Positions 14,773-34,285 of a stretch of 64,000 nucleotides of DNA are shown piece after piece (within the stretch, counting starts at the first letter, position 1; the number at the start of each line of letters is the position of its first letter). The stretch spans positions 7,525-71,524 of the forward strand of contig JBFIML010000005.1 in assembly GCA_041611735.1 (NCBI GenBank), read 5' to 3'. The stretch is from Myxococcota bacterium (GTDB lineage: Bacteria; Myxococcota_A; UBA9160; PR03). Under the pieces are notes generated by a model that was not told the origin of the DNA, made no database searches, and saw nothing but the letters and a program-made list of their open reading frames with translations. A program made the position numbers and the translations under genes.

Positions 14773-14876
14773 AGCTGGAGGTTCCCTCAAAAGCCCGCTT
14801 GGATCTACTATCCGTCGCTGCTTATCGCGTGTATGTCGCCGATTTCGACGCCGGAGACGAGAGCGCCGAAGCCCCC

Positions 14877-15054
14877 CATGCCCTCCGACACACCCGGGCG
14901 AGCCTGCACATGGCCCACGGGACCCCGATCAAGTGGATCCAGGGGCAGGGTGGCTGGGCCTCCGCGAAGATGCTCCTGGACGTATACGGCCCCTTCCTCA
15001 GGGTCGAGAGGCGCGGGTTCGCCGATGTGCTCGCGCGGCCCGGCGACTCCGGGC
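14877..15054 (+). pseudogene. Tyrosine-recombinase (phage integrase) C-terminal remnant
   Basis: HALRHTRASLHMAHGTPIKWIQGQGGWASAKMLLDVYGPFL corresponds to the H-x-x-R...Y catalytic tail of integrases. There is no N-terminal or core domain upstream, and the ORF reads on through the tRNA fragment. Confidence 0.6.
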
Positions 15055-15140
15055 GTCTCTTTACGTCTCCGCCGGAGAAACGGGTGGCCAATGCCGAGCC
15101 CATCTTGCTGCGTAGGTCCCCGCGCCAGCGGGAGAATCGG

Positions 15141-15187
15141 TGGAGCCGACGGCCGGATTCGAACCGGCGACCTGCTGATTGCGAATC
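15141..15187 (-). repeat. tRNA-Thr 3'-half copy (att repeat; partner at 34210-34256)
   Basis: tggagccgacggccggattcgaaccggcgacctgct is identical to the 3' end of the intact tRNA at 34210. The next 11 nt have 2 mismatches, and similarity is lost after that. No D-arm or 5' acceptor strand is present. Confidence 0.85.
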
Positions 15188-15287
15188 TGAGCGTCGCCTC
15201 TACTCCCGCGGACGCCCCCTTTCTCCAACCTGCTAGAATCGCTCTCGAATCGGCGTTTTCCGTTGAGCCTCGAACTACGCCTGCTTA

Positions 15288-15336
15288 TGCTTCCGGAAGC
15301 CCCGATTTGCTTCCGGATGCTTCCGACCTGCTTCCG
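15288..15336 (+). repeat. Four phased TGCTTCCG octamers (candidate integrase/excisionase arm-type sites)
   Basis: Copies lie at 15288-15295, 15308-15315, 15318-15325 and 15329-15336 (spacings 20, 10 and 11 nt), between the att repeat and the integrase start. Two more copies lie at the other island end. Confidence 0.6.
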
Positions 15337-15376
15337 AAATCCGAGGTCAGAGCGTCGCGGGGCGGAGGCGCCCGGA

Positions 15377-16561
15377 ATGGCGAAGCTCAACAAGCGCAGC
15401 GTGGACGCGGCCGCGCCGGGCCCGGGCGAGCGCTTCCTGTGGGACGAGGAGCTGCGCGGCTTCGGCCTGCGCGTCTTCCCCTCCGGCCGCAAGACCTTCT
15501 TCGTCCAGTACCGCGATCGCGTCCACGGCCGCACCCGCCGCTACGTGCTCGGCACCTACGGCGTCCTCACCCCCGCCGAGGCCCGCGCCCTGGCCGTGGA
15601 GGCGCTCGCCGAGGTCCAGAAGGGCGGCGCCCCCTCCGAGACCCGCCGCCAGGCCGCACAGGCCCCGACCGTGGCCGACCTCTGCGAGCGCTACGTCGCC
15701 GACTACGCCAAGGCCCGCAAGAAGCCCCGCAGCCTCGCCGAGGACGAGCGCCTGATCGACGACTTCATCAAGCCGGTCCTCGGCCGCCGCAAGGTGGCCT
15801 CCGTGAAGCGCCCGGACGTCGTGCGCCTCCACAACGCCATGGCGGGCACCCCCTACCAGGCCAACCGCGCGCTGGCCGTGCTCTCGAAGATGTTCAACCT
15901 GGCCGAGCGCTGGGGCCTGCGGTCCGACGGCAGCAACCCCGTGCGCCAGGTCGATCGCTTCCGGGAGCGCAAGCGCGAGCGCTTCCTCAGCAAGACCGAG
16001 CTCGCCCGGCTGGGCAAGCACCTGGCCGAGGCCGAGGCCGCCGGCACCGAGAAGGCCCCCACCCTCGCCGCCATCCGGCTGCTCTTCTTCACGGGCTGTC
16101 GTCTCAGCGAGATCCTGGGCCTGCGCTGGGCGGACGTGGACTTCGAGCGGCGCTGCCTGCGGCTCGCCGACTCGAAGACCGGCGCCCGGGTCGTCCCCCT
16201 GAACGCCCCGGCCCTCAAGGTCCTCGCCGACCTCGAGCCAGACGACTCGCCCTGGGTGATCCGCGGCCGCCGGCGCGGCGCCCCGCTGGTGAACCTCGGC
16301 AAGCCCTGGCGCCGCATCCGCGAGGCCACCAAGCTCGGCGACGTCCGCATCCATGACCTGCGCCACTCCTTCGCCAGCGTCGCCGCCGGCTCGGGGCACT
16401 CCCTGGTCGTGATCGGGGCGCTCCTCGGCCACCGCCAGGCCACCACCACGCACCGCTACGCCCACCTGTCGGACGACCCGGTGCGCACGGCCACGGAGGT
16501 GGTTGGAGCGCGGATCGAGGCCGCCATGGCGCGGCGAGATGCAGGCGACGGCGACGAGTAA
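15377..16561 (+). CDS. P4-type tyrosine integrase (DUF4102 arm-binding N-terminus plus catalytic domain)
   Basis: MAKLNKRSVDAA...FLWDEELRGFGLRVFPSGRKTFFVQYR...GRTRRYVLGTYGVLTPAEAR is the DUF4102-type N-terminus. The C-terminal part has RIHDLRHSFAS and HRYAH catalytic motifs. Confidence 0.85.
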   Translation: MAKLNKRSVDAAAPGPGERFLWDEELRGFGLRVFPSGRKTFFVQYRDRVHGRTRRYVLGTYGVLTPAEARALAVEALAEVQKGGAPSETRRQAAQAPTVADLCERYVADYAKARKKPRSLAEDERLIDDFIKPVLGRRKVASVKRPDVVRLHNAMAGTPYQANRALAVLSKMFNLAERWGLRSDGSNPVRQVDRFRERKRERFLSKTELARLGKHLAEAEAAGTEKAPTLAAIRLLFFTGCRLSEILGLRWADVDFERRCLRLADSKTGARVVPLNAPALKVLADLEPDDSPWVIRGRRRGAPLVNLGKPWRRIREATKLGDVRIHDLRHSFASVAAGSGHSLVVIGALLGHRQATTTHRYAHLSDDPVRTATEVVGARIEAAMARRDAGDGDE

Positions 16562-16699
16562 GACGCCGCGGAGGCGCGGGTTCGGCAGCCGGGCGGTTGA
16601 AGGACTGACGCTTCGCTGGCAGGGGCTTGGCCGGGCGACGGAAGCTGGATCGGCCAAGGCTTGGGCCGCTCGATCCCTAGTCCTGCCTCGAGTCGATCG

Positions 16700-18100
16700 G
16701 ATCCCCGGCGGGATCGCTTACGGCATCTATGAGTTCGTCAAGGACCTCGGCAACGAGTTGCCATGGCTCGGGTTTCTCCCGTGGTGGTCAGTTGGTTTCG
16801 TTCCGCATGCGCGTGAGCGCGGCGCGGCTTCGCTTGGCAGCGCGCTTCTCGCCGGCGCATCGAGCGTGAACCCGGCCTCGGCGTAGACGTCGTCGAGGTT
16901 GCGCGGTGCCCGCGCGGCGCGATGTCGCTCGTGCTTCTGGAGCTTGCGCAGCTTGAGCCGCGTGCGCTCCACGGCGGCGTAGCGGTACGGCTGCTGGGTG
17001 GTGAGGATGTGCCAGACGATCACGATCAGCTTGCGCGCCAGCGCAGTGACCGCGATCTGATCGCCCTTGCGGCGTCGGATGCGGTGGTAGGTCGCCGCCA
17101 GCGGCGAGCTGCTCCGCGCGATCGTGTGGGCCGCCTCGATCGCCAGCCAGCGGGCGTTGCGCGAGCCGGTCTTGGTGATGTGGCCGTAGTAGGCGGTGCC
17201 GCCGGACTGGCGGATCTTCGGTACCAGGCCGAAGTAGGCGGCCAGCTTCTGGGGGCTCGGGAAGCGGTCGATCGAGCCGATCGCGGCGAGGAAGCCCATG
17301 GCGACGACGACATCGACGCCCGGGATGGTGACCAGGAGCTTCGCGTCCGGATGGAGGCGGGCCTGCTCGAGGAGCTCGCGATCGAGGGCCTGGAGGCTCT
17401 CTTGAACGTGGCGCAGGAGCGCGGCCTGGTGATCCAGCACCAGGCGCTCGGCAGGCGGTAGCTCGAGCTCCGCGAGCCAACGGTAGCCCTTCTGGCTGAA
17501 CAGGAACCTCCCCGGGTAGCGCTGGAGGCTGCGGTTCAGCACGGCGTGGATGGTGTTCTTGGTGGCGACGGATTGGCGCCGCAGCTGGCGCCGATGGGCC
17601 ATGAGCTGGCGCACGGCCCAGGTCTCCCGGCTCGGCATCGCGACCTCCGGCAGGAAGTCGAGCCGCAGGAGCTGCGCCAGGATGTGGGCGTCCACCTTGT
17701 CCGTCTTGATCCGCGCGTAGGCGATCGCCTTGAGCGGCGCCGGCTCGGCGACCACCACGCGGTCGACGTAGCGCTCCAGGATCTGGACCAGGGCCCAGGT
17801 GTGGAAGGTCGCCTCCAGGGCGACCTCGTCGCCGCGCTCCAAGCCCCGGGCGAAGGCCTCGACGGCCTCCGGCCGGCCGCCGACGCGGAAGTCCCGGCGC
17901 TCCTGACCGTCCTCGGCCAGGCCGCAGACCTGGAGGAACTCCTTGTGGACATCGAGTCCGTAGAACATGCACACTCTCCTGCGGAGAGCCTCGGCGAAGG
18001 GTAATTGGGAAGAACGACACGTATCTATTCGCGCTCACAGCGCAGCCGCCCGAGTCGAGGGGGGAACCCAGGTAAGACATCGAGCTCGAAGCTCATGCGT
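16700..18100 (-). mobile_element. IS110-family insertion sequence (ends not determinable by eye; IS110 elements lack clear inverted repeats)
   Basis: Transposase CDS plus flanking non-coding DNA. The boundaries are approximate. Confidence 0.45.
16727..17968 (-). CDS. IS110-family (DEDD) transposase
   Basis: MFYGLDVHKEF... is the DEDD_Tnp_IS110-type N-terminus. LVTIPGVDVVVAMGFLAAIGSIDRFPSPQKLAAYFGLVPKIRQSGG matches the Transposase_20 domain pattern. The Arg-rich C-terminal tail may be read-through. Confidence 0.85.
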   Translation of the reverse strand: MFYGLDVHKEFLQVCGLAEDGQERRDFRVGGRPEAVEAFARGLERGDEVALEATFHTWALVQILERYVDRVVVAEPAPLKAIAYARIKTDKVDAHILAQLLRLDFLPEVAMPSRETWAVRQLMAHRRQLRRQSVATKNTIHAVLNRSLQRYPGRFLFSQKGYRWLAELELPPAERLVLDHQAALLRHVQESLQALDRELLEQARLHPDAKLLVTIPGVDVVVAMGFLAAIGSIDRFPSPQKLAAYFGLVPKIRQSGGTAYYGHITKTGSRNARWLAIEAAHTIARSSSPLAATYHRIRRRKGDQIAVTALARKLIVIVWHILTTQQPYRYAAVERTRLKLRKLQKHERHRAARAPRNLDDVYAEAGFTLDAPARSALPSEAAPRSRACGTKPTDHHGRNPSHGNSLPRSLTNS

Positions 18101-18250
18101 TAGTCGGCCGTCCCCACAGATCCTCGGCGTCCGAGGCTCTCCCATTCGTCCTTCGCTTCCGCCGCTGACCTGCGCCCCGTGGCCGGCGCCGAGAGGATGA
18201 CCCCGCGGCGCTCAGCGCACGAAGTGCGCGCAACCGGCGGGAAACATCAT
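17975..18250 (-). ncRNA. Candidate IS110 guide ('bridge') RNA region upstream of the transposase
   Basis: This is a non-coding leader with short perfect hairpins (ctctcc-tgc-ggagag near 17973-17987; cctcgg-cgt-ccgagg near 18121-18135). The assignment rests on family knowledge, not on a recognised fold. Confidence 0.25.
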
Positions 18251-18554
18251 GCGCGGCAACATAAGGGCAAGTCACAGTCGCGCTATGCGTCCGGAATCCC
18301 CACGGTTTTCGTGAATGGTTCCGCGCCCGGCGCTTCACTTGTGACTTGGATCCGATTGCTCATCAACCGGGATCGATTCGGCCGTCTCCCGACCGCCCGT
18401 TGACCACCTTGGTGACCGAGACGACGCCAAACCTTTCAAAGCACGTCCTCCGGCCGTCACCGCGGGCGTTGGGCTTCTCGGCCGGATGCGTTGCGCGGGC
18501 GCTCCTGGAAACCTCTCCTCATCGACCGGTCGGAGAGGTGACGCGGGCGTCCTC

Positions 18555-19268
18555 TCACCTGGAAGGGCGAGTCGAAGAGACGAGTACCAGCATGCCGAGT
18601 GCGCCAGCCACCACCGATCCGCCGAGGACTCCGGCCTTGGCGGCTTCGAGGCTCGCTCCTTCGAGGGCCAGGCCGGAGATGAAGAGCGCCATGGTGAATC
18701 CGATGCCGGCGAGGAGCCCGCCTGCGAGGAGCATCCCCCAGGTCACGCCACTTGGGAGGGTTGCGATCCCCGTCCGAACGACGAGGAAGCTCGCCACGAG
18801 GATTCCGACGGGTTTGCCCACGCAGAGGCCTACCGCTACGGCGATGGCGACGTCGTCCAGGCGCCGTGCCCGCCTCGCCACCCCCGCCCGCCACTTGCGC
18901 TGGTGGCGCAGGTAGCCGCGATCGCAGACGACGAGAGACGCGTCCTTGGCGAGCTCGAGGGCCACCGTATCGGGACGGCCTCGCCGCAGCACCAGCTTGA
19001 TCCCCCTCTCAGCCAGCGCCTCCGCCGTCTCCGCCAGGCCTTCGAGCAGGAACGCGAATGCACGCTCGCTGGCGTCGGGATAGCGATCGTAGAGGCCGAA
19101 TCCAACCACCACGGACTGGTCGCGTTCGTTCGCCAGCCGCACGGCGTGCTCCAGCGCCGGGTTGTGAAAGGCCCGCTGCGACTGCTGCATCCAATAGAGG
19201 ACGTACGAGCCCGAGTCGTCCGGAGGCTCGTCGCTCAAGCTGCGGATGCTTGGCTCTTCGACGCTCAC
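18555..19268 (-). pseudogene. Chimeric ORF: class II photolyase N-terminal fragment fused in frame to an NhaA antiporter C-terminal fragment
   Basis: Residues 1-~135 (YVLYWMQQSQRAFHNPALEHAVRLANE...LVVCDRGYLRHQRKWR) match the class II CPD photolyase N-terminal alpha/beta domain. Residues ~145-237 (VGLCVGKPVGILVASFLVVRTGIATLPSGVTWGMLLAGGLLAGIGFTMALFISGLAL...) match the last TM helices of NhaA. The junction lies near 18840-18865. Confidence 0.7.
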
Positions 19269-19355
19269 GGCCAGGTGTTCTTCTTCAGCTCGACCTTCGA
19301 TCGGATCGCCCAGATCAGATGCCGCGGTTTTGTCTCCGACGAGGCCGACATGGTG

Positions 19356-19769
19356 CTAGCGGGAGCCCTTGAATGGGAGCCGCATCGCCAGCTCCTGAAG
19401 TCGCGCCTCCGCCACCTCGCCTGCGCCATCCGAGGCGACCACGAGAAGATCCGGTCCGCCGAGCTCGAGCGCGACCTGGAGGCACGCGCCGCACGGCCAG
19501 GTGAGCTTGCCAGCAGTGCGCGGGGAGACGAGCGCCAGCAGCTCCGGACGGCCCAAGCCCTGGGCAACGACCGAGAAGAGGGCGGCGCGCTCCGAGCACA
19601 TCGCGAGACCCAGCGAGACGTTCTCGACCAGTGCCCCGGGGACGACCGCGCCACGATCTGTCACGACCGCCGCACCCATCTTGAAGCGGGAGTACGGGGA
19701 ATAGGCTCGTTCGAGCGCTTGCTCGGCCTGCTTCAGCGCCTCTCGGGCGCGCGCGTCTCGGACTTGCAT
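19356..19769 (-). CDS. cdd: Cytidine deaminase
   Basis: 137 aa with YSPYSRFKMGAAV, MCSERAA and WPCGACLQ zinc-ligand motifs. Confidence 0.8.
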   Translation of the reverse strand: MQVRDARAREALKQAEQALERAYSPYSRFKMGAAVVTDRGAVVPGALVENVSLGLAMCSERAALFSVVAQGLGRPELLALVSPRTAGKLTWPCGACLQVALELGGPDLLVVASDGAGEVAEARLQELAMRLPFKGSR

Positions 19770-19855
19770 GGGCGGAATACTACTAGAACGAGCCGGGCGC
19801 TGCGAAGACAGGCTATGTTGGTGCCACGGCGCGTCGCTCGACATCGAAGCCAGGG

Positions 19856-19875
19856 GATCTACTTTCCCGTAGATC
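19856..19875. promoter_or_regulatory. Perfect 7-6-7 inverted repeat GATCTAC-TTTCCC-GTAGATC upstream of dps (candidate operator)
   Basis: Lies 24 nt upstream of the dps ATG, in the cdd/dps divergent intergenic region. Confidence 0.35.
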
Positions 19876-19898
19876 TTCACAACCATGGAGAGATCTCG

Positions 19899-20342
19899 AT
19901 GAGTTCCAACGATCAGGTCGTGACGGCTCTGTCCAAGCTTCTCGCCGATACCGACACGGTCTACCTCAAGACCCACAACTACCACTGGAACGTGACAGGA
20001 CCGATGTTCAACACGCTCCACACGCTCTTCGAGACCCAGTACACGGAGTACGCGCTGGCCGTGGACGAGATCGCCGAACGCATCCGGGCAGTGGGGGCAC
20101 GCGCTCCGGGCAGCTACAGCGAATTCGCTGAGATCGCGTCCGTGAAGGAAGATCGTGGGTCGCCCCCGGCGATGCAGATGGTCGAGAACCTGGCCGCCGA
20201 TCAGAAGACGATCGTCATGGCGGCGCGCTCCGTCGTGGAGGCGCCCGAGACCATTGGCGACCAGGCGTCCGCCGACCTCGGCGCTCGTCGCATCCAGGTC
20301 CACGAGAAGAATGCCTGGATGCTGCGCAGCCACCTCGAGTAG
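19899..20342 (+). CDS. dps: Dps-family DNA-protecting ferritin-like protein
   Basis: 147 aa with LLADTDTVYLKTHNYHWNVTGPMFNTLHTLFETQYTE...VDEIAERI, the canonical Dps ferroxidase-site region. Confidence 0.85.
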   Translation: MSSNDQVVTALSKLLADTDTVYLKTHNYHWNVTGPMFNTLHTLFETQYTEYALAVDEIAERIRAVGARAPGSYSEFAEIASVKEDRGSPPAMQMVENLAADQKTIVMAARSVVEAPETIGDQASADLGARRIQVHEKNAWMLRSHLE

Positions 20343-20426
20343 CCCCAACACGCCGTTGCGATCGTCGATCGCGCAACGTCGCGTGGGCCTCGACCGCTAC
20401 GAGAAGGCTCGAAGCAGGGGGCGTCG

Positions 20427-21397
20427 ATGAGGAGCGGGCTGTGGCGCGACGACGCGACCCTTCGGGTGGGCATCTCCACCTGCCTCCTCGGGGAGGAGGT
20501 GCGCTGGGACGGTGGACACAAACGCCACCGCTTCCTCACGGACCTGCTCGCCGACTACGTGGAATGGGTCCCGGTCTGCCCGGAGGTCGAGATCGGCATG
20601 GGGATCCCCCGGGAGCCGGTGCACCTGATGCGACGTGAAGGGAAGATTCGCCTGCTCGGCACCAGGAGCGGGAACGACTGGACCAGCCGCATGGAGTCCT
20701 GGTCGGTGCGCCGGGTACGCGAGCTGGAGGCGCTCGACCTGTGCGGCTACGTGCTCAAGAAGGACTCGTCGAGCTGCGGCATGGAGCGGGTCAAGGTGCG
20801 CAGCGAGAAGGGCATGCCGAAGAAGGAGGGCCGCGGGGTCTTTGCCGGAACGCTCCAGGACCACGCCCCGGCGCTCCCCGTGGAAGAGGAGGGGCGACTC
20901 AACGACCCCGCGCTCCGCGAGAACTTCATCGAGCGGATCTTCGCCTACCGGCGCCTGCGCTCGCTCTTCGCGGAGCGCTGGAGCCGGGGGCGCCTCGTGG
21001 CCTTCCACACCGCCCACAAGCTCCAGCTGATGGCACACTCGCCCGAAGCCTATCGGTCCCTGGGCCGTCTGGTGGCGTCGGCGAAGGGGATTCCCCCGAA
21101 GGCGTTCCGCGCGCGCTACGAGAGCGAGTTCATGGCGGCGCTCCAGCATCGCGCGACCGCCCGCCGACACGTGACGTGCTCCAGCACTGCGTGGGCCACT
21201 TTCGCAAGCAGCTCGAGCGGGAGGCTCGGGCCGAGCTCGGCGAGCTCATTGCCGACTACCGCGCCGGGCTCGTCCCCCTGATCGTGCCCGTCACCCTGAT
21301 CCGTCACTACGTCCGGCACCTTCGGGTCGAGTATCTCGCGGGCCAGGTCTATCTCGAGCCCCACCCGAAGGAGCTCATGCTGCGAAACCATGTCTGA
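20427..21397 (+). pseudogene. YbgA-like DUF523+DUF1722 gene with an apparent frameshift near 21168-21180
   Basis: The DUF523 part is intact (VGISTCLLGEEVRWDGGHK...CPEVEIGMGIPRE). The DUF1722 part continues in another frame after ...ATARRHV (DVLQHCVGHFRKQLEREARAELGELIADYRAGLVPLIVPVTLIRHYV...PKELMLRNHV). This is either a sequencing error or decay. Confidence 0.65.
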
Positions 21398-22883
21398 GGG
21401 TCCGGAGGTCGGAGCGAGCGATGGCGGCAGCGTTGATTCCCCCGCGAAGAGGCGCCTCACCATCGCCATCGCCGGCGCCACGGGCTTCGTGGGAGAGGCC
21501 CTGTGCCGGGCCCTCGTGCCCGATCACCGCGTGATCGGGCTCACGCGCTCGCGAGAGCGCGCCGAGAGCTCGCAGCGCGACGGAGTCACCTGGCGTCGCT
21601 GCGACCTCTTCTCCCTGCGCGAGCTCGAGCTCGCCCTCGAGGGCGCGGACTACGCGATCTACCTGGTCCACTCGATGCTTCCCTCGGCGCGCCTCACCCA
21701 GGCCAGCTTCGCCGATCTCGACCTGCTGCTGGCCGACAACTTCGCGCGCGCCGCGCAGCGCTGCGGGGTGGGCCAGATCCTCTACGTCGGCGGTCTCACG
21801 CCTCCCGAGGGGCCGCTCTCGCCCCATCTCGCCAGCCGGCTCGAGGTGGAGCAGACCCTCGGCTCCCACGGCGTGCCCCTCACGGCGCTGCGGGCCGGGC
21901 TGATCGTAGGGCCCGGCGGGTCCTCGCTCTCGATCCTCGTGAACCTGGTTCGGCGGCTCCCGGCCATGATCCTGCCCCGCTGGACCGAGTCTCGGACACA
22001 GCCCATCGCGCTGGCGGACGTGGTGCGCGCTGCGCGGCACTGCGTCGGCAACCCGGAGACCTACGGGCGTAGCTTCGACATCGGCGGGCCCGACGTGATG
22101 ACCTACCGCAAGATGCTCACCCAGGTCGCGGAGGCCCTGGGGAAGCGGCGCTTCATGCTCGGGGTTCCGCTGTTCTCGCCGCGGCTTTCGCGCCTCTGGG
22201 TCACGGTCTTCAGCGGCGCTTCGGGGGCTCTCGTGAACCCACTGATCGAGACTCTTCGCCACGACATGGTCTGTGCCGAGAATCCCCTCCAGCGCTGGCT
22301 CGAGCCCGACGCCCAGGGTTTCGCGGCGTCTCTTGGTCGCTCGCTCGAGACGGGAGAGCTGGCCCCGCCGCCGCGCCACCGCCTGTTCCGGCTGGAGCGC
22401 GCCTCGCTACGGCGCACGAGCACGGTGCGTTCCGTCCAGCGGCTCGTGCTTCCGAAGGGCCGCGACGCACGCTGGGTCGCGGCGGAGTATCTGCGCTTCC
22501 TGCCGCGCTTCGTCGCCCCGCTCGTGGGCTGCCGGGTCGAGGGCGACCTCTGCCGCCTCACCCTGCGCGGTACGCCGCTGCTGCTGATGGAGATGCGCTT
22601 CGCGCCCGATCGCAGCAGCGACGATCGACAGATCTTCGACGTCGTGGGTGGGCTCCTGGTGCGCCGGGGCCCGGGCCCGCGCGGACGTCTCGAGTTCCGG
22701 GAGGTGCTAGAGCACCGCCACGTGGTCGCTGCCGTCCACGACTTCCAGCCGGCGCTGCCCTGGCCGATCTACAACCAGACCCACGCCAGGGTTCACCTGT
22801 GGGTCATGCGCGGGTTCGCGCGGCACCTGCGCCGGGTGGCTGAGGGCATGGCCGCGGCGATCCCCGCTAGTACCTCGGACTAG
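21390..22883 (+). CDS. NAD(P)H-binding (NmrA/atypical SDR-like) protein with DUF2867-like C-terminal domain
   Basis: The N-terminal Rossmann motif is IAIAGATGFVGEAL. 497 aa. The C-terminal half has no catalytic motif recognised. Confidence 0.6.
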   Translation: MSEGPEVGASDGGSVDSPAKRRLTIAIAGATGFVGEALCRALVPDHRVIGLTRSRERAESSQRDGVTWRRCDLFSLRELELALEGADYAIYLVHSMLPSARLTQASFADLDLLLADNFARAAQRCGVGQILYVGGLTPPEGPLSPHLASRLEVEQTLGSHGVPLTALRAGLIVGPGGSSLSILVNLVRRLPAMILPRWTESRTQPIALADVVRAARHCVGNPETYGRSFDIGGPDVMTYRKMLTQVAEALGKRRFMLGVPLFSPRLSRLWVTVFSGASGALVNPLIETLRHDMVCAENPLQRWLEPDAQGFAASLGRSLETGELAPPPRHRLFRLERASLRRTSTVRSVQRLVLPKGRDARWVAAEYLRFLPRFVAPLVGCRVEGDLCRLTLRGTPLLLMEMRFAPDRSSDDRQIFDVVGGLLVRRGPGPRGRLEFREVLEHRHVVAAVHDFQPALPWPIYNQTHARVHLWVMRGFARHLRRVAEGMAAAIPASTSD

Positions 22884-22914
22884 CGCGCGTTCACCCTGCG
22901 GTGAGGGTAGCTCG

Positions 22915-23442
22915 CTAGGACGCCGGCTTCTGGAGGGTCCGCTCCAACGGGGCGAGGTCGTAGCCCTTCGCCCGGATGCGAGTCAGTATCCTCTGGTATA
23001 GCGCCTCGTCCAGGGTCGGTGTGCGTGAGAGGATCCAGAGGTACTCGCGCGCCGGGTGGCCCACCACGGCCCAGCGATAGTCGGGGTCGAGCTCGATGAT
23101 CCAGTAGTGGCCCCAGAACGGCCAGAAGAACTGGACGCGAAGCCTGGCGTTGTTCGGGTCGCCCTCCGCGACCCAGGCCACACCCTCGGCGCGGCGCACG
23201 TCGCCATCCAGGGATCCGTCGCGGCACTGGTTCTCCACACGGATCCGGCCGTCCTCGCGGCGCGAGTACTCGGCCTGCGTCGCGACGCAGCCTCGCTGGA
23301 AGTACTGAGGAAAGCTCGCGATCTCGTACCAGCGCCCGAGGTAGCGATCGAGGTCCACGTCCTCGACCACCATCAGGTTGGAGGAAGCCGTCTGGCAGCC
23401 AAGAAGGACAGCAACGAGCGCCAAGGGCGCAAGCCACCGCAT
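22915..23442 (-). CDS. blc: Bacterial lipocalin (Blc-type outer-membrane lipoprotein)
   Basis: Lipobox LLGC, then DLDRYLGRWYEIASFPQYFQRGC...RVENQC, the Blc signature. Confidence 0.8.
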   Translation of the reverse strand: MRWLAPLALVAVLLGCQTASSNLMVVEDVDLDRYLGRWYEIASFPQYFQRGCVATQAEYSRREDGRIRVENQCRDGSLDGDVRRAEGVAWVAEGDPNNARLRVQFFWPFWGHYWIIELDPDYRWAVVGHPAREYLWILSRTPTLDEALYQRILTRIRAKGYDLAPLERTLQKPAS

Positions 23443-23968
23443 CGGGATACCTCCGGTCCCGTTTCGCAACGGCCCGAATCGCCGACGCCGGCACGCCCGG
23501 TGAGACACAGGCGGTTGCGGGCGAAGGGTTGGCACGGGGCGTCGGGGCCCTTGCGCAGGCTGGGCCAGTGCGTCGGGACAGTCGCCGTCGGACAGGACTG
23601 CTATCTCCGCGGGAATTCGCGTCATCCAGCCACCTCGAGTCCAAACAGCGTAACCTGCTGCTCCAGGGCTTCCAGGCTCGGGATGCAGTGCCTCAGCGCC
23701 AGGGAGTCATTTCGGGACCGCTCCGCCGCGGGCAGCTCCGCTCCTGCGCTCCCCGCGACCGTCTAGCGCTGCCTGGCGGTCCCCAGCTCCCAGATCCTGC
23801 CGCGCCTCAACGGAGTTCATCTTCCGGTTGGATGGAGAAGAGGCACCAGGTAGGCTCCGCTCGCGGAGTAGAAGGCTTCTTCCAGTTTTCCCGACTTTCA
23901 TTGCAGTCAGGACGCTGCGGAGGGCCGCCAAGTTCACATGTTCCTTCCCCAGTGAACGAGGGGTGCCG

Positions 23969-24613
23969 ATGTCCATGCAGAGCGGACCACAGGAACCCGG
24001 CTACGCGATCGGCACGGTCGCCGGCCTGACCGGCCTGGATCCCCACACCATCCGGGCCTGGGAGCGCCGCTACGGAGCCGTGAGTTTTCACAGGGACCCG
24101 CGCGGCGTGCGCCGCTATGACGATGCCGCGGTGGTGCGTCTGCAGCTCCTCAAGGCGGTCACGAATTGTGGCGGATCCATCGGCTCCATCGTGCGCCTCC
24201 CGGACGCGACCCTGCGCGAGCGCCTGGGTCGGCTCGCCTGCATGGCGGCCGACGCAGCCGTGGCTCCGGGAGGCCGCCCGAGCACCTTGGCTCTTTTCGC
24301 TCCGGGCCTCTCCTCCCAGCTTGGCGCCGGAAGGTCCCTGGGTGGCCTCCAGGTCACCGTTTCGGAGACCGACGTCGCCGGCATTCCTCGAGAAGCTCTC
24401 GGACGCGGCGTCTTGAGGTCGTCGTGGCGGATCTCCTCCGCCTCGGCTGCGAGCCTCTGCGATGCCGCGCTGCACCGCTACCTGGGCGCGGCCTCCGCCT
24501 GCGTCCGACACGAGCTCGAGACGATGCTCGAGCGCGTCTGCGAGCACGAGGGCATCCGCGTATGGCGAGGAAGCTCGATTTGGAGACCGTCTGGATCTTC
24601 GGCGATCAGCTGA
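23969..24613 (+). CDS. MerR-family transcriptional regulator (LitR/PplR1-like context; no B12-binding motif seen)
   Basis: The N-terminal HTH is YAIGTVAGLTGLDPHTIRAWERRYGAVSFHRDPRGVRRYDDAAVVRLQLL. The 3' end overlaps the next gene by 52 nt, so the true stop or C-terminus is uncertain. Confidence 0.7.
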   Translation: MSMQSGPQEPGYAIGTVAGLTGLDPHTIRAWERRYGAVSFHRDPRGVRRYDDAAVVRLQLLKAVTNCGGSIGSIVRLPDATLRERLGRLACMAADAAVAPGGRPSTLALFAPGLSSQLGAGRSLGGLQVTVSETDVAGIPREALGRGVLRSSWRISSASAASLCDAALHRYLGAASACVRHELETMLERVCEHEGIRVWRGSSIWRPSGSSAIS

Positions 24614-26067
24614 ACCGCGACATCGCGAGCCTCGAGGGCGTGGAGCCCGGGGAGGCTCGCGTCCTCATGGTGGAGAGTCAGAGCAAGCTGCGCTCGAGGC
24701 GCTGGCACCACCAGCGCCTGCATTTGGTCGTTACCGCCATGCGTCGCTTCGCCGCCGAGCTCGAGGGGGCGGGCTTCGAGGTCGACTACCGGAAGGCGGC
24801 GACCCTGGAGAAGGGCCTCGCCTCCCACCGGCGCCGCTTCCGGTCGCCGAAGGTGCGCGCCATGGAGCCCAACGGCTTTGACCTGCGGCGGCGTCTCGAG
24901 GACCTCGACGTGGAGCTCGTGCGCTCGAATCTGTTCCTCTGCCACTACGAGGACTTCGCCGGGTGGGCCAAGGGTCAGAAGCGCCTGCGCATGGAGGACT
25001 TCTATCGCTGGCAGCGGACCCGCCTGGGCTACCTGATGGAGGACGGAAAGCCCGCCGGGGGCCGCTGGAACTTCGACGCCGACAATCGCGAGCCCCCGCC
25101 CCAGGGCGAGCCGCCCTGGAGCGCCCCGCCAAGGTCGAAGCTCGACGAGCTCGACGCTGCGGTCGTCGCGGCGCAACACCAGGATCTCATGGGCGAGGCG
25201 CCCAAGGGCCTCTGGGCCACCTCGCGGCGCTCGGCCCTCGCGCGCCTGCGGCGCTTCGTGAGCCAGGAGCTTCCCCGCTTCGGCCCCCACGAGGACGCGA
25301 TGACGCGGCGCTCCTGGCATCTCGCCCACTCGCTCCTCAGCCCCTATCTGAACCTCGGTCTACTTCGGCCCGGCGAGGTCTGCGACGCCGTCCAGGCCGC
25401 CTACGACGAGGGTCGCGTTCCCATCGCTTCGGCGGAGGGATTCGTGCGCCAGGTGATCGGCTGGCGCGAGTACGTGTGGGGTGTCTACTGGCTCTGGATG
25501 CCCGAATACCGCGAGGAGAACGCCCTGGGCGCGAAGCGCGGCCTGCCGCCCGCCTTCCAGGACTCGAGTCGGACCCGAATGCGCTGTGTGGCCGAGACCG
25601 TGCGCGGCATCGAGGAGCACGGCTACGCCCACCACATCCAGCGTCTCATGGTGCTGGGCAACTTGTCGCTCCTCGCCGGCATCGAGCCCATGCAGGTCGT
25701 GGACTGGATGTGGGCCTCCTTCGTCGATGGAGCCGAGTGGGTGATGCTCCCGAACGTGCTCTCCATGGCGCTCTACGCGGACGGCGGCCGCATGACGACG
25801 AAGCCCTACGCGTCCGGCGGGGCCTACATCTCCCGCATGAGCGACTACTGCGGGGCCTGTCCCTACGATCCCAAGCAGCGCGTGGGGGACGAGGCGTGCC
25901 CCTTCACCACGCTCTACTGGGACTTCCTCGCCCGCCACGAGAAGCGCCTCGCCGCGAACCCCCGGGTCGCTCGCCAGGTCCACGCCCTGAAGCGCCTGAG
26001 AGACCTGCCGGTGGTGCGCAAGCGAGCGCGAGAGATGCTCGAGCAGCTCGATCGAGGCGGGCTCTGA
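24562..26067 (+). CDS. Fe-S bacterial cryptochrome/photolyase family protein (PhrB/CryB-type, (6-4) photolyase-like)
   Basis: 501 aa. The family pattern runs throughout (WIFGDQLN, HHQRLHLVVTAMRRFA, GGRWNFDADNRE). The four-Cys set typical of the [4Fe-4S] site is present (MRCVAE...DYCGACPYDPKQRVGDEACPF). Confidence 0.8.
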   Translation: MARKLDLETVWIFGDQLNRDIASLEGVEPGEARVLMVESQSKLRSRRWHHQRLHLVVTAMRRFAAELEGAGFEVDYRKAATLEKGLASHRRRFRSPKVRAMEPNGFDLRRRLEDLDVELVRSNLFLCHYEDFAGWAKGQKRLRMEDFYRWQRTRLGYLMEDGKPAGGRWNFDADNREPPPQGEPPWSAPPRSKLDELDAAVVAAQHQDLMGEAPKGLWATSRRSALARLRRFVSQELPRFGPHEDAMTRRSWHLAHSLLSPYLNLGLLRPGEVCDAVQAAYDEGRVPIASAEGFVRQVIGWREYVWGVYWLWMPEYREENALGAKRGLPPAFQDSSRTRMRCVAETVRGIEEHGYAHHIQRLMVLGNLSLLAGIEPMQVVDWMWASFVDGAEWVMLPNVLSMALYADGGRMTTKPYASGGAYISRMSDYCGACPYDPKQRVGDEACPFTTLYWDFLARHEKRLAANPRVARQVHALKRLRDLPVVRKRAREMLEQLDRGGL

Positions 26068-26069
26068 GA

Positions 26070-26371
26070 GCCCCATCCCCAGGGCGCCTCGACGGCTGGT
26101 ACGCCTACCGCGCATCGAAAGCCGCCCAGAACATGTTCACGCGTACGCTCGCCGTCGAGCTCGCACGGCCGGCGCAGAGCGCGATCTGCGTGGCGCTGCA
26201 TCCGGGCACCGTCGACACGGATCTCTCGCGTCCCTTCCAGCGCAGCGTCGCGCCCGTACGACTGTTCGATCCCGACCGGCCGCGCGCCAGCTCCTGGCGG
26301 TGAACGACGGCCTGACGCTCGAGCAAAGCGGGAGCTTCCTGGCCTGGGACGGCGCGCCGATCCCCTGGTAG
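26070..26371 (+). pseudogene. Short-chain dehydrogenase remnant (C-terminal half only, plus a frameshift near 26285)
   Basis: YRASKAAQNMFTRTLAVELAR...CVALHPGTVDTDLSRPF carries the SDR YxxxK active-site region but has no Rossmann N-terminus. The tail QLLAVNDGLTLEQSGSFLAWDGAPIPW-stop lies in another frame. Confidence 0.6.
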
Positions 26372-26398
26372 GACGAAGGGACGGGTAGGTCCCCTGGG

Positions 26399-27631
26399 TC
26401 AGCGCGCTGACAGCAGGCGCACGCGGCTCAGGCGAACCCAGGAGGACGGCGACCTCAAAGCAGGCCAGGCCAGCTGACGCGCGGCCCGGTGAAGACGCCG
26501 TGCAGCGGCGGGGGCGGCGTCCCGCACGGACCGCCGGTCGATCTGCGCCATCACCAGCTCGAACACCCCCTCTTTTGCGGCCGACAGCGGTGGCCCTGCC
26601 AGGGCGAGCTGCCCGGCGACCAGAAAGCAGGAGAGGTCGCCGAAGGAGACCAGGGTGGGCTTGCCGGCGGGGCGGAAAGGCCGCAGCGAGCTCGGGTCGA
26701 GAAGCCGGCGGACGTTTCGGGCGGCGTGACGTCCCATGTCGAGCGCATGGTAGGCCTGCTTCTCGAGAGGCGAGGGGAGCTCCGCGGCGTCGCCCGCGAC
26801 GAAGACCTCCGGAGCGACCGCGCTCCTCAACGACGCTTCGACCGGCGCCCAGGCTCCCGGCTTCGGGGCGAGCCCGGAGGCGGCCAGCACGGGGGGCGCC
26901 GTGGGACCGCCCGTCCAGATCGTGGCCGCCGAGGGGAGGATCCGCCCCCCGGCAAGCGCCACGGCGCCGGCTTGGACCTTCGAGACGGCCGCGCCCGTGT
27001 GGAAGTGAACGTCGAAGCCTCGGCACAGGCGCCGCACGTGCCGATCCAGGCTCGGAGGCGCTTCCGGCAGCAGGCGAGCCCGAGCCTCGACGAGGTGGAT
27101 CCGGAATGCGCTGCTCTGGCGCCAGCGCCTCAGCATCTCTCCCAACGCCTCGACGCCCTCCAGGCCCCCTCCCACGATCACGACCTCGTGCGGCCCGTCC
27201 TCGGTAGCCAGCTCCTCGAGCCGTCGGCCGATCCGTGCGCATTCGTCCACGGACTTGAAGAGGAGGGCATGGGTCTCGACACCCGGGACGCCATGGGTGG
27301 CGTTCACGCCGCCGAGGGCCACGATGAGCGCGTCGTAGGGGAGCGGCCGGCGATCCTCGAGGTGGACGCGCCGCTCGGCGAGGTCGATGCCTTCGACTCC
27401 GGCCCGCACGAAGCGGTGACCGGCATCGCGCACGATGCGATCGCGGGGGAGCCGGAGCAGGCGAGGCGTCTTCACGCCCGACACGAGCTCGTGGATGTTC
27501 GGCAGGAACTCGAAGTGGCGGGTACGGTCGACGAGCGTGACACGCCATTCAGCGGGTAGCTCGGCCGCGGCGGCGAGACCGGCGAAGCCGCCGCCGAGGA
27601 CCACGACGCGGGGGGACGCGAGGCGTGTCAC
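26399..27631 (-). CDS. NDH-2-like FAD-dependent pyridine nucleotide-disulfide oxidoreductase
   Basis: VVVLGGGFAGLAAA and VVIVGGGLEGVE are the dinucleotide-binding motifs, and VFVAGDAA is also present. The GTG start at 27631 overlaps the upstream stop (GTGA). The long Arg-rich N-terminal extension in the track is rejected. Confidence 0.7.
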   Translation of the reverse strand: MTRLASPRVVVLGGGFAGLAAAAELPAEWRVTLVDRTRHFEFLPNIHELVSGVKTPRLLRLPRDRIVRDAGHRFVRAGVEGIDLAERRVHLEDRRPLPYDALIVALGGVNATHGVPGVETHALLFKSVDECARIGRRLEELATEDGPHEVVIVGGGLEGVEALGEMLRRWRQSSAFRIHLVEARARLLPEAPPSLDRHVRRLCRGFDVHFHTGAAVSKVQAGAVALAGGRILPSAATIWTGGPTAPPVLAASGLAPKPGAWAPVEASLRSAVAPEVFVAGDAAELPSPLEKQAYHALDMGRHAARNVRRLLDPSSLRPFRPAGKPTLVSFGDLSCFLVAGQLALAGPPLSAAKEGVFELVMAQIDRRSVRDAAPAAARRLHRAARQLAWPALRSPSSWVRLSRVRLLSAR

Positions 27632-28620
27632 TCCGTGTCCCCGAGCATTCGTGCGCCCAGCGCGAGCCCACTGGTCCACGCGCTCTCGACCCGATCGCCC
27701 CCGCACCAGTCCCCGCAGGCGCCCAGGCCCGCGGCTTCGGCGTAGAGGTGCGAAGCGGGGAGCGGACGCGTGACGCGGGCGAAGCGCCAGCGCTGACCCG
27801 CCAGGTGCTTCACGGCGGGAAGTGGACGACCCAGTGTAGCCCCGAGGGCGGAGACGAGATCGCGCGCGAAGCTCTCCGGCTCGGTCTCGAGATAGGTCGC
27901 GCTCCAGCCGGCAGCCGCGTGCAGCACCCAACGTTCGCCTCCGCCTCGCTGGGGCTTGGAAGAGTCGCGGGCCACCCAGGAGAGCGGGCTGGCCTCGACG
28001 AACGCTCCGTCGAAGGCTGCCTCGACGTCGGCCTCGAAGCCGACCATGGCTGCCAGGCATGGCGCCATCTCGGCCTCGGAGGCGCGCGCGGCGAGCTCGG
28101 GCACTGGCGCGAGGAGCGGCCAAGCCTGGGGCGCCGGCGTGGCGACCGCCACGGCCCCGAACGGCCCGTGGGACTGCCCGTCCGCGTCGCGGAGCGACCA
28201 GCGCCCCGCTTCGCCTTCGAGCGCCTGGATGCGGACGCCGCAGCGCACATCGAGCGTGCGCGCCAGGTGCCGCGCCAGACTGCTCATTCGCGGAATGGCG
28301 ACGAACCGCTTCGCGCTCGACGGACGCACGGCGACGCTCCCGCCGGCGAGATCCACGATGCGACCGGTCCACGGGGCGACGACGCTCTCCCCGACCCAGC
28401 CGTGGGCGGTCTTCGCGAACTCCGGATCCCGGGCGGTGAAGTACTGGGCGCCGTGGTCGAAAGCGCCGGCATCGCTGCGACGTGTGGAGATGCGACCGCC
28501 CGGCGCTCGCGCCTTCTCGAAGACTACGACCGCCGCGCCGGCCCGGGCCAGGGTGCTCGCACAGGCGAGTCCGGCGACGCCCGCGCCAACGATCGCGACG
28601 CTTCGCGCCGTGCTCGTCAC
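27628..28620 (-). CDS. NAD/FAD-dependent oxidoreductase (renalase-like, COG3380-type)
   Basis: VAIVGAGVAGLACASTLARAGAAVVVFEKARAPGGR is the N-terminal FAD motif. 330 aa. The GTG start overlaps the upstream stop. Confidence 0.65.
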   Translation of the reverse strand: MTSTARSVAIVGAGVAGLACASTLARAGAAVVVFEKARAPGGRISTRRSDAGAFDHGAQYFTARDPEFAKTAHGWVGESVVAPWTGRIVDLAGGSVAVRPSSAKRFVAIPRMSSLARHLARTLDVRCGVRIQALEGEAGRWSLRDADGQSHGPFGAVAVATPAPQAWPLLAPVPELAARASEAEMAPCLAAMVGFEADVEAAFDGAFVEASPLSWVARDSSKPQRGGGERWVLHAAAGWSATYLETEPESFARDLVSALGATLGRPLPAVKHLAGQRWRFARVTRPLPASHLYAEAAGLGACGDWCGGDRVESAWTSGLALGARMLGDTE

Positions 28621-29402
28621 AAGGGGTTGCCGCAGACGCGCTCGTAGGCCCCGCGCACGTCGTAGCTGCCGCCGAGGGCGCCCAGGTGATCGTAGAGGGC
28701 GGCCAGGTAGCAGCCGAGGGCCAGGAAGTTCGGGTGGAGCGACGCGCCGGCGTCGCGGCAGCGAACGAACACGTCGTGGAAGGACGTCTGGAAGCTCTTC
28801 GGGTCGAACTGCACCTCGCGTTGGTCGCCGTCGCCGAAGTGGTGCCGGAAGGAATCCCGCGCGGGCTCGAGTCTGAGGTCGGCGAGGGCCGCGTCGAAGA
28901 GCTCGTCGTCGCCGGAGTAGAAGCCGGCGTAGACCCGGCGTATCGCGTCGAGGAAGGACGCGTCCCAGCGGATCCAGTAGGGCCCTGGGTGCCAGACCAG
29001 GGTCTCACCGCCGCCCAGGAAGCGGTCGAGGCGCAGGTCGATCACGGCCGACTCGTGGGCCACGAGCTGCCCGAAGTAGATCTCCAGCACGCGCTGCCCG
29101 CGGGCTCGACGTCCGGAGTCGTCCAGGTCGCGGTGCGCATCGGGCTCGGCCGCCTCGCCCCCCGCGTAGAGCTCCACCGCCACGCCTCGTCGCTCGAGCG
29201 CGGCCTCGACCTCCTCGGCGAGGTCGCGAAAGCCGGACCGGTCGGAGGCGTTGCCGAGCAGCTCGCGCCCCTGACGCAGCAGCGCCCGGGCGGGCATCAC
29301 GTCGAAGAAGGAGGGCGACACGAAATCCGCGAGCTGCTTCCACTCCGCACCGCCCAGCGTGCGGCGGATCAGACCCTCGGCGCTGCGAGCCCAGCGGAAC
29401 AC
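28617..29402 (-). CDS. Hypothetical protein, first gene of a three-gene overlapping operon; family not recognised
   Basis: Ordinary protein composition (e.g. RVLEIYFGQLVAHESAVIDLRLDRFLGGGETLVWHPGPYWIRWDASFLDAIRRVYAGFYSGDDELF). A candidate GTG start at 29402 has GGAGGA upstream, and ATG alternatives lie further in. Confidence 0.5.
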   Translation of the reverse strand: MFRWARSAEGLIRRTLGGAEWKQLADFVSPSFFDVMPARALLRQGRELLGNASDRSGFRDLAEEVEAALERRGVAVELYAGGEAAEPDAHRDLDDSGRRARGQRVLEIYFGQLVAHESAVIDLRLDRFLGGGETLVWHPGPYWIRWDASFLDAIRRVYAGFYSGDDELFDAALADLRLEPARDSFRHHFGDGDQREVQFDPKSFQTSFHDVFVRCRDAGASLHPNFLALGCYLAALYDHLGALGGSYDVRGAYERVCGNPL

Positions 29403-29462
29403 ACCAACGAGGGTTCCTCCGGGTCGACCCCCCGTCAAGGTCTGGACAGCTATGTTCTTCTG

Positions 29463-30422: not shown

Positions 30423-30436
30423 GCTAGACCTATCCC

Positions 30437-31312
30437 ATGAAGAAGGCCACGGCCCAGGCCGTCCTCTCGATCCCGGTGATCCTGCTGGTCGCGGCCGCCG
30501 TGGGCTGGGCGGGGAGCCAGGGCGGGCAGCGGTTCGGGGCGGTGCCGGTCTTCGCGCTGTGCGGCGCCTTTTGCTTCGCCCTGAACTGGCTGGTCTTCGT
30601 TCCCTCCTACGCCGCCCACACGGAGCGTTACTTCGACCTCACCGGCAGCCTCACCTACCTCGGAGCCATCGCCTGCGGGGTCGCCCTGGGAAGCCGTGAT
30701 CCGCGCGCGCTGCTGCTGGCGGTGCTGGTCGGTGTCTGGGCGCTACGCCTCGGCAGCTTCCTGTTCCGGCGCATCCGCCGCGACGGCGTGGACCGTCGCT
30801 TCGACGCGCTCAAGGTCGACTTCACGCGCTTCCTTTTGACCTGGACGCTCCAGGGCCTGTGGGTCTTCCTCACCGTCTCGTGCGCGCTCGCCGCCATCAC
30901 GGCAGCGGTGCCGACGCCCCTGGGCCCGACGGCGGCGCTGGGAGCCGCCGTCTGGATCGTCGGCTTCGCGATCGAGGCCATCGCCGACCGCCAGAAGGCA
31001 GCCTTCCGGGGGGATCCGGCGAACCGCGACCGCTTCATCGCCACGGGTCTGTGGGCCTGGTCGCGCCATCCCAACTACTGCGGGGAGATCCTGCTCTGGA
31101 TCGGGGTGGCGCTGATCGCCGTCCCTGCGCTCTCGGGCTGGCAGCTAGTGACGCTGATCTCCCCGGTCTTCGTGTACGTCCTGCTGACCCGCATCAGCGG
31201 GATCCCGCTTCTCGAGTCGCGGTCCGATGCCAAGTGGGGCGACGACCCGGACTACCAGGCCTACAAGGCACGCACGCCCGTGCTGTGGCTCCGGCCCCCG
31301 GCCTCGAGTTGA
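30437..31312 (+). CDS. DUF1295 (steroid 5-alpha-reductase/ICMT-like) membrane protein
   Basis: Polytopic, with the family motif GLWAWSRHPNYCGEILLWIG. Confidence 0.75.
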   Translation: MKKATAQAVLSIPVILLVAAAVGWAGSQGGQRFGAVPVFALCGAFCFALNWLVFVPSYAAHTERYFDLTGSLTYLGAIACGVALGSRDPRALLLAVLVGVWALRLGSFLFRRIRRDGVDRRFDALKVDFTRFLLTWTLQGLWVFLTVSCALAAITAAVPTPLGPTAALGAAVWIVGFAIEAIADRQKAAFRGDPANRDRFIATGLWAWSRHPNYCGEILLWIGVALIAVPALSGWQLVTLISPVFVYVLLTRISGIPLLESRSDAKWGDDPDYQAYKARTPVLWLRPPASS

Positions 31313-33755: not shown

Positions 33756-34016
33756 TCACCGGACCACAGAGCCGGCTGACGCTCGGGCGGGAGCTCCCGG
33801 ATCGGAGGTCGAGCGCCGGCGCGCGGCCTCGACGTACTGCTCCAGGTCCTCCGGGTCGTAGCGGACCGCGCCTCCCAGCTTGAGGAAGGGCGGTCCGTTG
33901 CCCTGGAGTCGCCACTTCTGCAGCGTGCGGACGCTCAGCCCCAGCCGCTGGGAGGCGTCGCGTTCGGTCAGCAGCTCCGCCATGCCCGAGGCCATCGCAA
34001 GCCCCGTGCCGCGCAA
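33756..34016 (-). CDS. Excisionase/AlpA-type helix-turn-helix DNA-binding protein
   Basis: [49 protein letters not shown] matches the excisionase-family HTH pattern. The true start is probably an internal ATG (about 33983). Confidence 0.7.
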
Positions 34017-34147: not shown

Positions 34148-34166
34148 TGCTTCCGCCCTGCTTCCG
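34148..34166 (+). repeat. Two TGCTTCCG octamers 11 nt apart (same motif and strand as 15288-15336)
   Basis: Copies lie at 34148-34155 and 34159-34166, between the excisionase-like gene and the tRNA. Confidence 0.55.
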
Positions 34167-34209
34167 GGCTCTGTGTCGCGAAATCGCGCCCGCGTAACTA
34201 GGCGAAATG

Positions 34210-34285
34210 TGGAGCCGACGGCCGGATTCGAACCGGCGACCTGCTAATTACGAATCAGCTGCTCTACCAGCTGAGCTACGTCGGC
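34210..34285 (-). tRNA. tRNA-Thr (anticodon CGU), 76 nt with encoded CCA
   Basis: The reverse complement folds as GCCGACG-TA-GCTC-AGCTGGTA-GAGC-A-GCTGA-TTCGTAA-TTAGC-AGGTC-GCCGG-TTCGAAT-CCGGC-CGTCGGC-T-CCA. This is a complete cloverleaf with an anticodon loop TT-CGT-AA. Confidence 0.9.

Follow-up and report, generated by a model that had tools for sequence, protein, structure and literature searches.

Phased octamers at both ends of a genomic island as predicted arm-type sites of its P4-like integrase

The tRNA-Thr(CGT) gene of a Myxococcota bacterium is occupied by a genomic island of approximately 19.1 kb (positions 15140-34256 of the 64,000-nucleotide stretch of DNA analysed here, referred to as the window). 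At both ends of the island, the octamer TGCTTCCG recurs at intervals close to a turn of the DNA helix. What protein reads these octamers, and to what effect? The initial annotation had proposed that they serve in the P and P' arms as arm-type sites for Int or as sites for Xis. The comparisons described below lead to the prediction that the six octamers are, in all likelihood, sites of the arm type (P and P') for the P4-like integrase that the island itself encodes. That prediction has direct support in the sites themselves, their rarity, their conservation in place and phase, the co-variation of their bases with the N-terminal domain of the integrase, and the identity of that domain.

The arrangement at the two ends is given in Table 1. 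All six copies, each on the + strand, were found exactly where they had been placed by the initial annotation, with the same spacings from start to start (20, 10, and 11 nt in the left cluster and 11 nt in the right). Their surroundings were also as described: four copies lie between the left att copy and the start codon of the integrase gene (int) and two between the gene encoding an Xis-like protein and the tRNA gene. (The true start of the Xis-like gene is probably an internal ATG, giving a protein that begins MASGMAELL.) The 48-nt att repeat corresponds to positions 29-76 of the tRNA. Joining the two ends gives an attP of about 258 bp in which all six octamers have the same orientation and the order is the divergent xis-like gene, two octamers, 42 nt, the core, 101 nt, four octamers, 40 nt, and int. 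Measured from the 48-nt core, two sites are thus at 61 and 50 nt on one side, and four sites are at 101 to 149 nt on the other. A short repeated motif, unrelated to the core and present on both sides of it within about 150 bp, is what is expected of arm-type sites of the lambda kind.

Table 1. Positions of the features at the ends of the island (numbering of the window)
Feature	Position	Strand	Basis or remark
Left att copy, 48 nt, 3' part of tRNA-Thr	15140..15187	+	37 nt exact, then 2 mismatches toward the island
Predicted arm-type site P'a, TGCTTCCG	15288..15295	+	Sequence; identical in related element G026:C125
Predicted arm-type site P'b, TGCTTCCG	15308..15315	+	Sequence; kept in G026:C125
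Predicted arm-type site P'c, TGCTTCCG	15318..15325	+	Starts 10 nt past start of P'b; kept in G026:C125
Predicted arm-type site P'd, TGCTTCCG	15329..15336	+	11 nt past P'c; 40 nt short of int ATG; kept in G026:C125
P4-like tyrosine integrase, 394 aa	15377..16561	+	Arm-DNA-bind_3, SAM-like core-binding, and catalytic domains
Xis-like HTH_17 protein, candidate recombination directionality factor	33756..34016	-	Divergent from att core
Predicted arm-type site Pa, TGCTTCCG	34148..34155	+	Other arm, 61 nt from att core; layout as in five homologous elements
Predicted arm-type site Pb, TGCTTCCG	34159..34166	+	11 nt past Pa; ends 42 nt short of att core
Right att copy, within intact tRNA-Thr gene	34209..34256	+	
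tRNA-Thr(CGT), integration target	34210..34285	-	ARAGORN, one tRNA found

The DNA beyond the left end of the island may have a history of its own. Abutting the left att copy are the last 60 or so codons of another tyrosine recombinase (14799-15010, + strand; ..HALRHT..DVYGPF..; PF00589, E = 1.8e-4), and the DNA to the left of this fragment (1-15 kb) has a G+C content of 60-68%, as against 72-75% in the core genome. It appears that an older island once occupied this tRNA gene and left this remnant.

Perhaps the octamers are nothing more than a chance recurrence, or a short tandem repeat that arose by slippage and serves no function. Short G+C-rich words do recur in a genome with a G+C content of 72%, and one other pair of copies within 100 nt exists (on contig C27). 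However, the window contains eight copies of TGCTTCCG, where 2.8 +/- 1.6 are expected from shuffles that preserve dinucleotides, and none of 100 such shuffles reached eight. The two copies outside the clusters (8824 and 22447) are singletons, in line with the background. The initial annotation had allowed that the octamer might prove to be common throughout the genome, but over the whole assembly (118 contigs, 4,086,371 bases, 72% G+C) it is rare: 180 copies on the two strands, about one per 23 kb, compared to 511 of the reversed control word. Two or more copies fall within 100 nt of each other at just three places in the genome, namely the two island ends and C27:1481/1532, and the island ends are the only non-coding clusters. 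Since the octamer is rare genome-wide, its clustering at the ends of the island is not an effect of composition. Slippage fares no better, as the spacers between copies are unrelated to one another in sequence and a second cluster exists at the other end of the island. Conservation of the feature across phyla, with controls near zero (see below), adds to the case, and a functionless repeat is exceedingly improbable. The third cluster (G000:C27:1481-1539) was set aside as a chance occurrence: its copies are 51 nt apart, inside an open reading frame of 467 codons, with no att context. No phased pair of the motif was found in the interior of the island, hence there is no sign that Int controls cargo genes.

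Two features of the left cluster are not accounted for by simple phased binding: the first spacing is 20 nt, and the first octamer is overlapped by a perfect 12-nt palindrome, GCTTCCGGAAGC (15289-15300). Elsewhere, a near-palindrome, GCTTCCGGGAAGC, is found at the last site upstream of an integrase that is 54% identical to that of the island (locus L023), and in the element G053, the direct pair is followed, before int, by two extra, inverted copies (TGGCAAGCA twice, 11 nt apart). Inversions of this sort near int may be a recurring extra feature.

The island's integrase has what is required of a protein that would read such sites. In addition to core-binding and catalytic domains (PF14659 and PF00589, Phage_integrase), it carries the N-terminal arm-binding domain that is characteristic of lambda-type systems, in this case Arm-DNA-bind_3 (PF13356, residues 4-93, E = 1.1e-16). 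Of the catalytic residues, R242, K267, R329, and Y361 do not vary across the family alignment, H352 hardly varies, and H326 is visible in HDLRH. An N-terminal DUF4102 domain, an intact R-K-H-R-H-Y set, and the 3' part of a tRNA gene as target together place the enzyme among the P4-like integrases of the IntSXT subgroup, in which DUF4102 is the arm-binding domain (PMC8138268).

A search of the PDB with the full-length protein gave relatives of the catalytic domain only, and relatives of the N-terminal domain were reached through profile and fold searches. An AlphaFold2 model of residues 1-100 (pLDDT 87.9, from an alignment of 59 sequences) contains four strands (19-22, 29-33, 39-46, and 53-61) followed by one helix (66-81). 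Foldseek, given this model, ranked 3JU0, 3JTZ, and 3RMP far above all other PDB entries (TM 0.78-0.84 on the target, rmsd 1.1-1.4 A, 23-30% identity), and the same three entries were recovered by the profile search. The title of 3JU0 is "arm-type binding domain of HAI7 integrase", and 3JTZ is the same domain of the HPI integrase.

If the octamers belong to the integrase, then related integrases should be accompanied by motifs of the same type. A six-frame search of 60 related genomes yielded 25 further integrase loci (37-85% identity), and a scan of one genome per species, using an alignment of six sequences as the query, yielded 80 more (41-56% identity), mostly from Alphaproteobacteria but also from delta-proteobacterial, Binatia, Elusimicrobia, and actinomycete MAGs. 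Upstream of int, nearly all of the 25 loci have two direct repeats spaced by 10-11 nt, or else three to four copies; these repeats precede the start codon by 15-120 nt and are separated from the tRNA-derived core by about 100-170 nt. The repeated word varies from element to element: TGCTTCC(G), GTGCTTGCCA, GTGCTTACC, TGGTTGC, CTGTGACCC, TGTTGCAC, and CTGCCCACAA. The exact variant TGCTTCCG is also found beside the integrases of Shimia (L102), two Rhodospirillaceae MAGs (L106 and L129), and others. Candidate pairs of arm sites in other genomes include TGGTCACA octamers and TAGGT(A/G)C boxes.

The initial annotation had suggested looking for the same motif next to homologous integrases, and counts bear out the expectation. 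A pair anchored as xTGnTwnCy, on the sense strand, precedes int in 59 of 94 homologous loci (37-85% identity, several phyla); by the same criterion it is absent from the other 35, about a third. The corresponding controls are 6 of 94 on the antisense strand upstream, none of 75 inside int, 1 of 69 downstream, and 3 of 470 in shuffled upstream sequences. The spacing is 11 nt in 59 of 61 anchored pairs, and the median position is -64 relative to the start codon. A search that presupposes no motif, for a perfect 9/9 repeat with a spacing of 10-12 nt within 250 nt, gave 25 of 75 upstream of int, as compared with 1 of 75 inside int, 1 of 69 downstream, and none of 375 in shuffled upstream sequences. 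Position and phase are kept, then, while the sequence tracks the integrase, as is expected of lambda-type arm sites.

A related element, G026:C125, comes from another family of the same order and has an integrase 82-85% identical to that of the island. A 57-nt block containing the four octamers and their spacers is 100% identical in the two elements, with flanks that are about 80-85% identical. Between the core and the first octamer are 100 nt (15188-15287), within which a block at about 15241-15282 is matched in G026:C125 at about 38 of 42 positions and includes GCTCTCGAATCG and GAGCCTCGAAC; this block is a candidate place for the binding of Xis or a host bending protein. The match to int in G026:C125 (1-2736; loci L011 and L032) is in two pieces (189-587 and 595-1362), with the end of the contig just upstream, and the split reflects either a frameshift or an assembly error.

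The genome from which this contig comes (G026) has ten matches to the island integrase (loci L023, L027-L034, L048, and L049) with at least four different arm motifs. Tandem arrays occur there at one tRNA gene, with three att copies on contig C37, and contig C53 has an extra partial att with its own pair of motifs. To judge from these sequences, the arrays suggest repeated accretion of such islands. Phages were also considered as possible examples of a contiguous attP. In Aeromonas phage ST4 (L133; OR261032.1, about 1140-1170), an integrase gene (40% identical) follows a complete tRNA-Lys gene on the opposite strand, with TTGCGCCCAAC and CTGCGCCCGG 11 nt apart and about 40 nt upstream of int and an inverted GGGCGCA nearby. 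No clear second arm was found in ST4, but by virtue of the pair upstream of int, the same arm-site grammar appears in a 90-kb phage. Ralstonia phage DU_RP_II was dropped as too distant to read.

Arm sites should be present on both sides of the core. The second att copy could be located by its direct repeat in five homologous elements, and each of the five has its own motif again, similarly oriented, at 43-88 nt from the far core. The far arm has a clean pair 11 nt apart in three cases: G053 (7.3 kb; CGTGCTTGCCATATGCTTGCCA, first copy 43 nt from the far core), G010 (6 kb; TGGTTGCAGTATGGTTGCAG, 77 nt), and G026C37 (16 kb; CTGCTTGCCGGGTGCTTGCC, 65 nt). In the other two, G036C9 (22 kb; CTGTGACCCGGACGTGACCC, 88 nt) and G036C8 (12 kb; TTGCTTCCATGGCGCTTCC, 74 nt), the second copy is mismatched. 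The two right-hand copies of the island fit this layout. Absence of the motif from the att arms of homologous elements would have told against the proposal of the initial annotation, but the arms contain either the octamer or a version of it that co-varies with the integrase.

That co-variation appears as a clear and less expected by-product of the sequence comparison, extending over about 70 elements. The N-terminal 110 residues of 68 integrases were aligned with the corresponding pairs of sites, and links between columns were sought by mutual information (residues are numbered here as in the island integrase). When the base following TG is C, residue 44 is Q in 32 of 38 cases and residue 53 is T or S in 34 of 38; when it is G, residue 44 is K in 13 of 15 and residue 53 is Q in 10 of 15 (z = 11-14 relative to shuffles that ignore kinship). 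When the base N in TGnTT[N]C is C, residue 55 is R or K in 35 of 36 cases, and when it is G, residue 55 is W, H, or I in 17 of 17 (z = 16, kinship again ignored). Finally, G following CC is accompanied by F or Y at residue 34 in 10 of 10 cases and C by R34 in 12 of 19 (z = 10, likewise with kinship ignored). Twelve other variable columns of the protein have no comparable link with the first DNA position.

Kinship was taken into account through a tree built from the C-terminal two-thirds of 64 proteins, with re-scoring of four of the eight traits. There are 7-14 changes of DNA state on this tree, and its supported branches provide 4-7 phylogenetically independent pairs per trait. Within these pairs, the residue shifts in the matching direction in almost all cases and in the opposite direction in none: 4.0 of 4 pairs match for G at position 6 and W/H/I55, 4.6 of 5 for C at position 3 and T/S53, 4.9 of 5 for G at position 8 and F/Y34, and 2.9 of 4 for G at position 3 and K44. 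The independent pairs are so few that no single sign test reaches 0.05 (the best is 0.0625). The direction is uniform across traits, though the traits are not fully independent of one another.

In the AlphaFold2 model, the co-varying residues are on the neighboring strands 2-4 or at their ends. By the register of the hairpin, residues 44 and 55 would be cross-strand neighbors, and the strand register, taken together with the titles of the PDB entries, suggests that the co-varying residues may face the DNA. Perhaps the arm domain reads its site by a simple code, transferable across a widespread clade of integrases, a notion to which we would assign even chances. By such a code, the base after TG would depend on residues 44 and 53 (Q with T or S giving C, K with Q giving G, and L53 giving A or T), the base in TT[N]C on residue 55 (R or K giving C or A; W, H, or I giving G), and the base after CC on residue 34 (F or Y giving G, R giving C). 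No family-wide rule relating residues to bases was found in the literature searched, though the structure entry 3RMP may cover part of it. If true, the code would make arm sites and the limits of attP predictable from the sequence of the integrase alone and would open arm specificity to re-design.

The co-variation also bears on the second half of the original proposal, that the octamers are sites of the Xis-like protein, which would oligomerise on phased repeats and bend the arms toward excision. There is something to be said for this. Among directionality factors of this type, binding to direct, phased repeats of att arms is known, the TorI sites overlapping PintS being an example (PMC2951348), the HTH_17 gene of the island is only about 130 nt from the two copies in the P arm, and Xis-like genes occur, at varying places, in most of the homologous elements examined. 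But the octamers are in both arms, in one orientation, and their variable bases follow residues in the N-terminal domain of the integrase. The sites of a directionality factor should follow its recognition helix and lie in one arm, and, so far as a small sample can tell, these do neither. The closest Xis proteins, those of G026C37 and G026C53 (65-75% identity), have an identical recognition helix, SVRTLQKWR (again a small sample), yet their elements use yGCTTGCC rather than TGCTTCCG, and residue 55 of Int is H there, R in the island. Conversely, paired sites occur in both arms of G036C9, an element in which no similar Xis gene was found at E <= 0.01. Furthermore, RdfS, the factor of ICEMlSymR7A, showed no consensus motif (PMC11963761). 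The Int part of the original proposal, supported by the relatives, the far arms, and the co-variation with the N-terminal domain, therefore stands, and the Xis part, given sites in both arms and an identical helix alongside a different motif, is disfavored: it is improbable that the octamers are Xis sites. Xis may well have sites of its own, for instance in the 100-nt interval that separates the first octamer from the core.

Alternatively, the octamers might be operators or promoter elements through which some other regulator, of the host or of the island, governs int and xis, with no part in recombination. Four copies are just upstream of int and two are upstream of the divergent xis-like gene, and site 1, with its 12-nt palindrome, would suit a dimeric regulator. 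However, what the motif changes with is the integrase and not the host, at least four different motifs being found within the single genome G026. Also, the two-sided layout is kept even where xis sits elsewhere, next to int, and the co-variation points to residues of Int. Control by another regulator is accordingly very unlikely.

Taking the octamers, then, as arm-type sites of the integrase, we infer that Int binds them, that an intasome is assembled on them, and that int is autoregulated. Upon excision, the ends of the island would join in the circle to form the attP of about 258 bp. The integrase would be heterobivalent, its catalytic and core-binding domains on the core and its N-terminal domain on the octamers. 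The latter, a four-stranded beta-sheet domain (residues 1-95), would read the octamers with the region of F34, Q44, T53, and R55 directed toward the variable bases, and the spacing of 10-11 nt would set neighboring N-terminal domains on one face of the helix. Bridging between arms and core, probably with the help of a host bending protein, would build an intasome able to cut and rejoin DNA in the tRNA-Thr gene, and for excision the Xis-like protein would be added.

Bound Int probably also represses its own gene. The core is separated from the int ATG by only 190 nt, and the octamers end 40 nt short of that codon. Beyond the left att copy the DNA does not belong to the element, so a promoter for int should be found within these same 190 nt, alongside the four P' sites. 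With those sites in the sole DNA available for an int promoter in the integrated state, self-repression is likely, by analogy with known systems. Scans of both arms for promoters and terminators found none, and as no sigma-70-type promoter was recognised in the P' arm, the case for autoregulation is one of geometry and precedent.

What follows from all this? The sites would delimit a functional attachment site of about 258 bp, and in combination with an integrase that is intact and a gene for an Xis-like protein, they suggest that excision and integration may still be open to the 19-kb island. More broadly, one grammar of arm sites is common to a large clade of integrases that target tRNA genes and occur in Alphaproteobacteria, in delta-proteobacterial and Binatia MAGs, and in others: pairs of GTGnTwnCC 11 nt apart, placed some 30-120 nt ahead of int, with a repetition in the other arm. 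The grammar should be useful in annotating attP and attL/attR in genomic islands, and the co-variation leads to testable predictions as to how the DUF4102 arm domain reads DNA. Our understanding of site-specific recombination is unchanged by these sites. Arm sites of P4-type integrases were already known, and the feature described here is real, conserved, and of the expected kind.

One system with a comparable arrangement is phage lambda. Its attP has arm sites P1, P2, and P'1-P'3 flanking the core within about 240 bp, with excisionase acting on one arm. The island would follow the logic of lambda, with a heterobivalent integrase, arm sites flanking the core, neighboring sites about one helical turn apart, and an excisionase at one arm, but the family of the N-terminal domain, the sequence of the sites, and the regulation of int are all different. 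In particular, DUF4102 has an extra strand and helix that are absent from lambda Int (PMC8138268).

[quoted passage not shown] 2009, J Biol Chem 284:31664, as cited in PMC8138268), to which the domain of the island integrase is likened by fold and family: both have four strands plus a helix and belong to Pfam PF13356. Those integrases come from enterobacterial islands, however, and have other arm sequences. The paper on another element, ICEKp1, does not mention arm sites (PMC13023037).

With respect to attP, a close parallel is ICEMlSymR7A, to which the island is likened by this region and not by the sequence of its integrase. The ICEMlSymR7A attP, as reported in PMC11963761 (citing Verdonk et al. 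2019, Plasmid 104:102416), is 283 bp in length, compared to about 258 bp here, and contains five P/arm-type motifs with the consensus TGKTGGTATC, all of them needed for integration. In both cases, several motifs of 8-10 nt flank the core, the island is beside a tRNA gene, and the int promoter is in an att arm (for the island, a prediction from geometry). IntS bound to attP has been proposed to block transcription of intS (PMC11963761). The island differs in having six sites rather than five and TGCTTCCG as its motif, though the ICEMlSymR7A consensus agrees with the family pattern GTGnTwnCy (compare GTGGTACC in loci L053, L073, and L081). It also differs in that its candidate directionality factor gene, of the HTH_17 type, is beside the other arm, whereas rdfS is far away in a transfer operon, and no conjugation genes were seen among the island genes examined.

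A precedent for regulation is the IntS-TorI module of KplE1 (CPS-53) and HK620 in E. coli (PMC2951348). There, as here, int reads away from att. In KplE1 the P' sites overlap a dedicated promoter, PintS, intS represses itself, and int and the directionality factor gene are transcribed separately; the island would share these features. The arm motif of KplE1 is a conserved TAAA and its target is argW, and its int is next to the intact tRNA gene, whereas that of the island is next to the partial copy. Negative autoregulation has been demonstrated in KplE1, and for the island's integrase, with four predicted sites in the short stretch before its gene, the same is likely.
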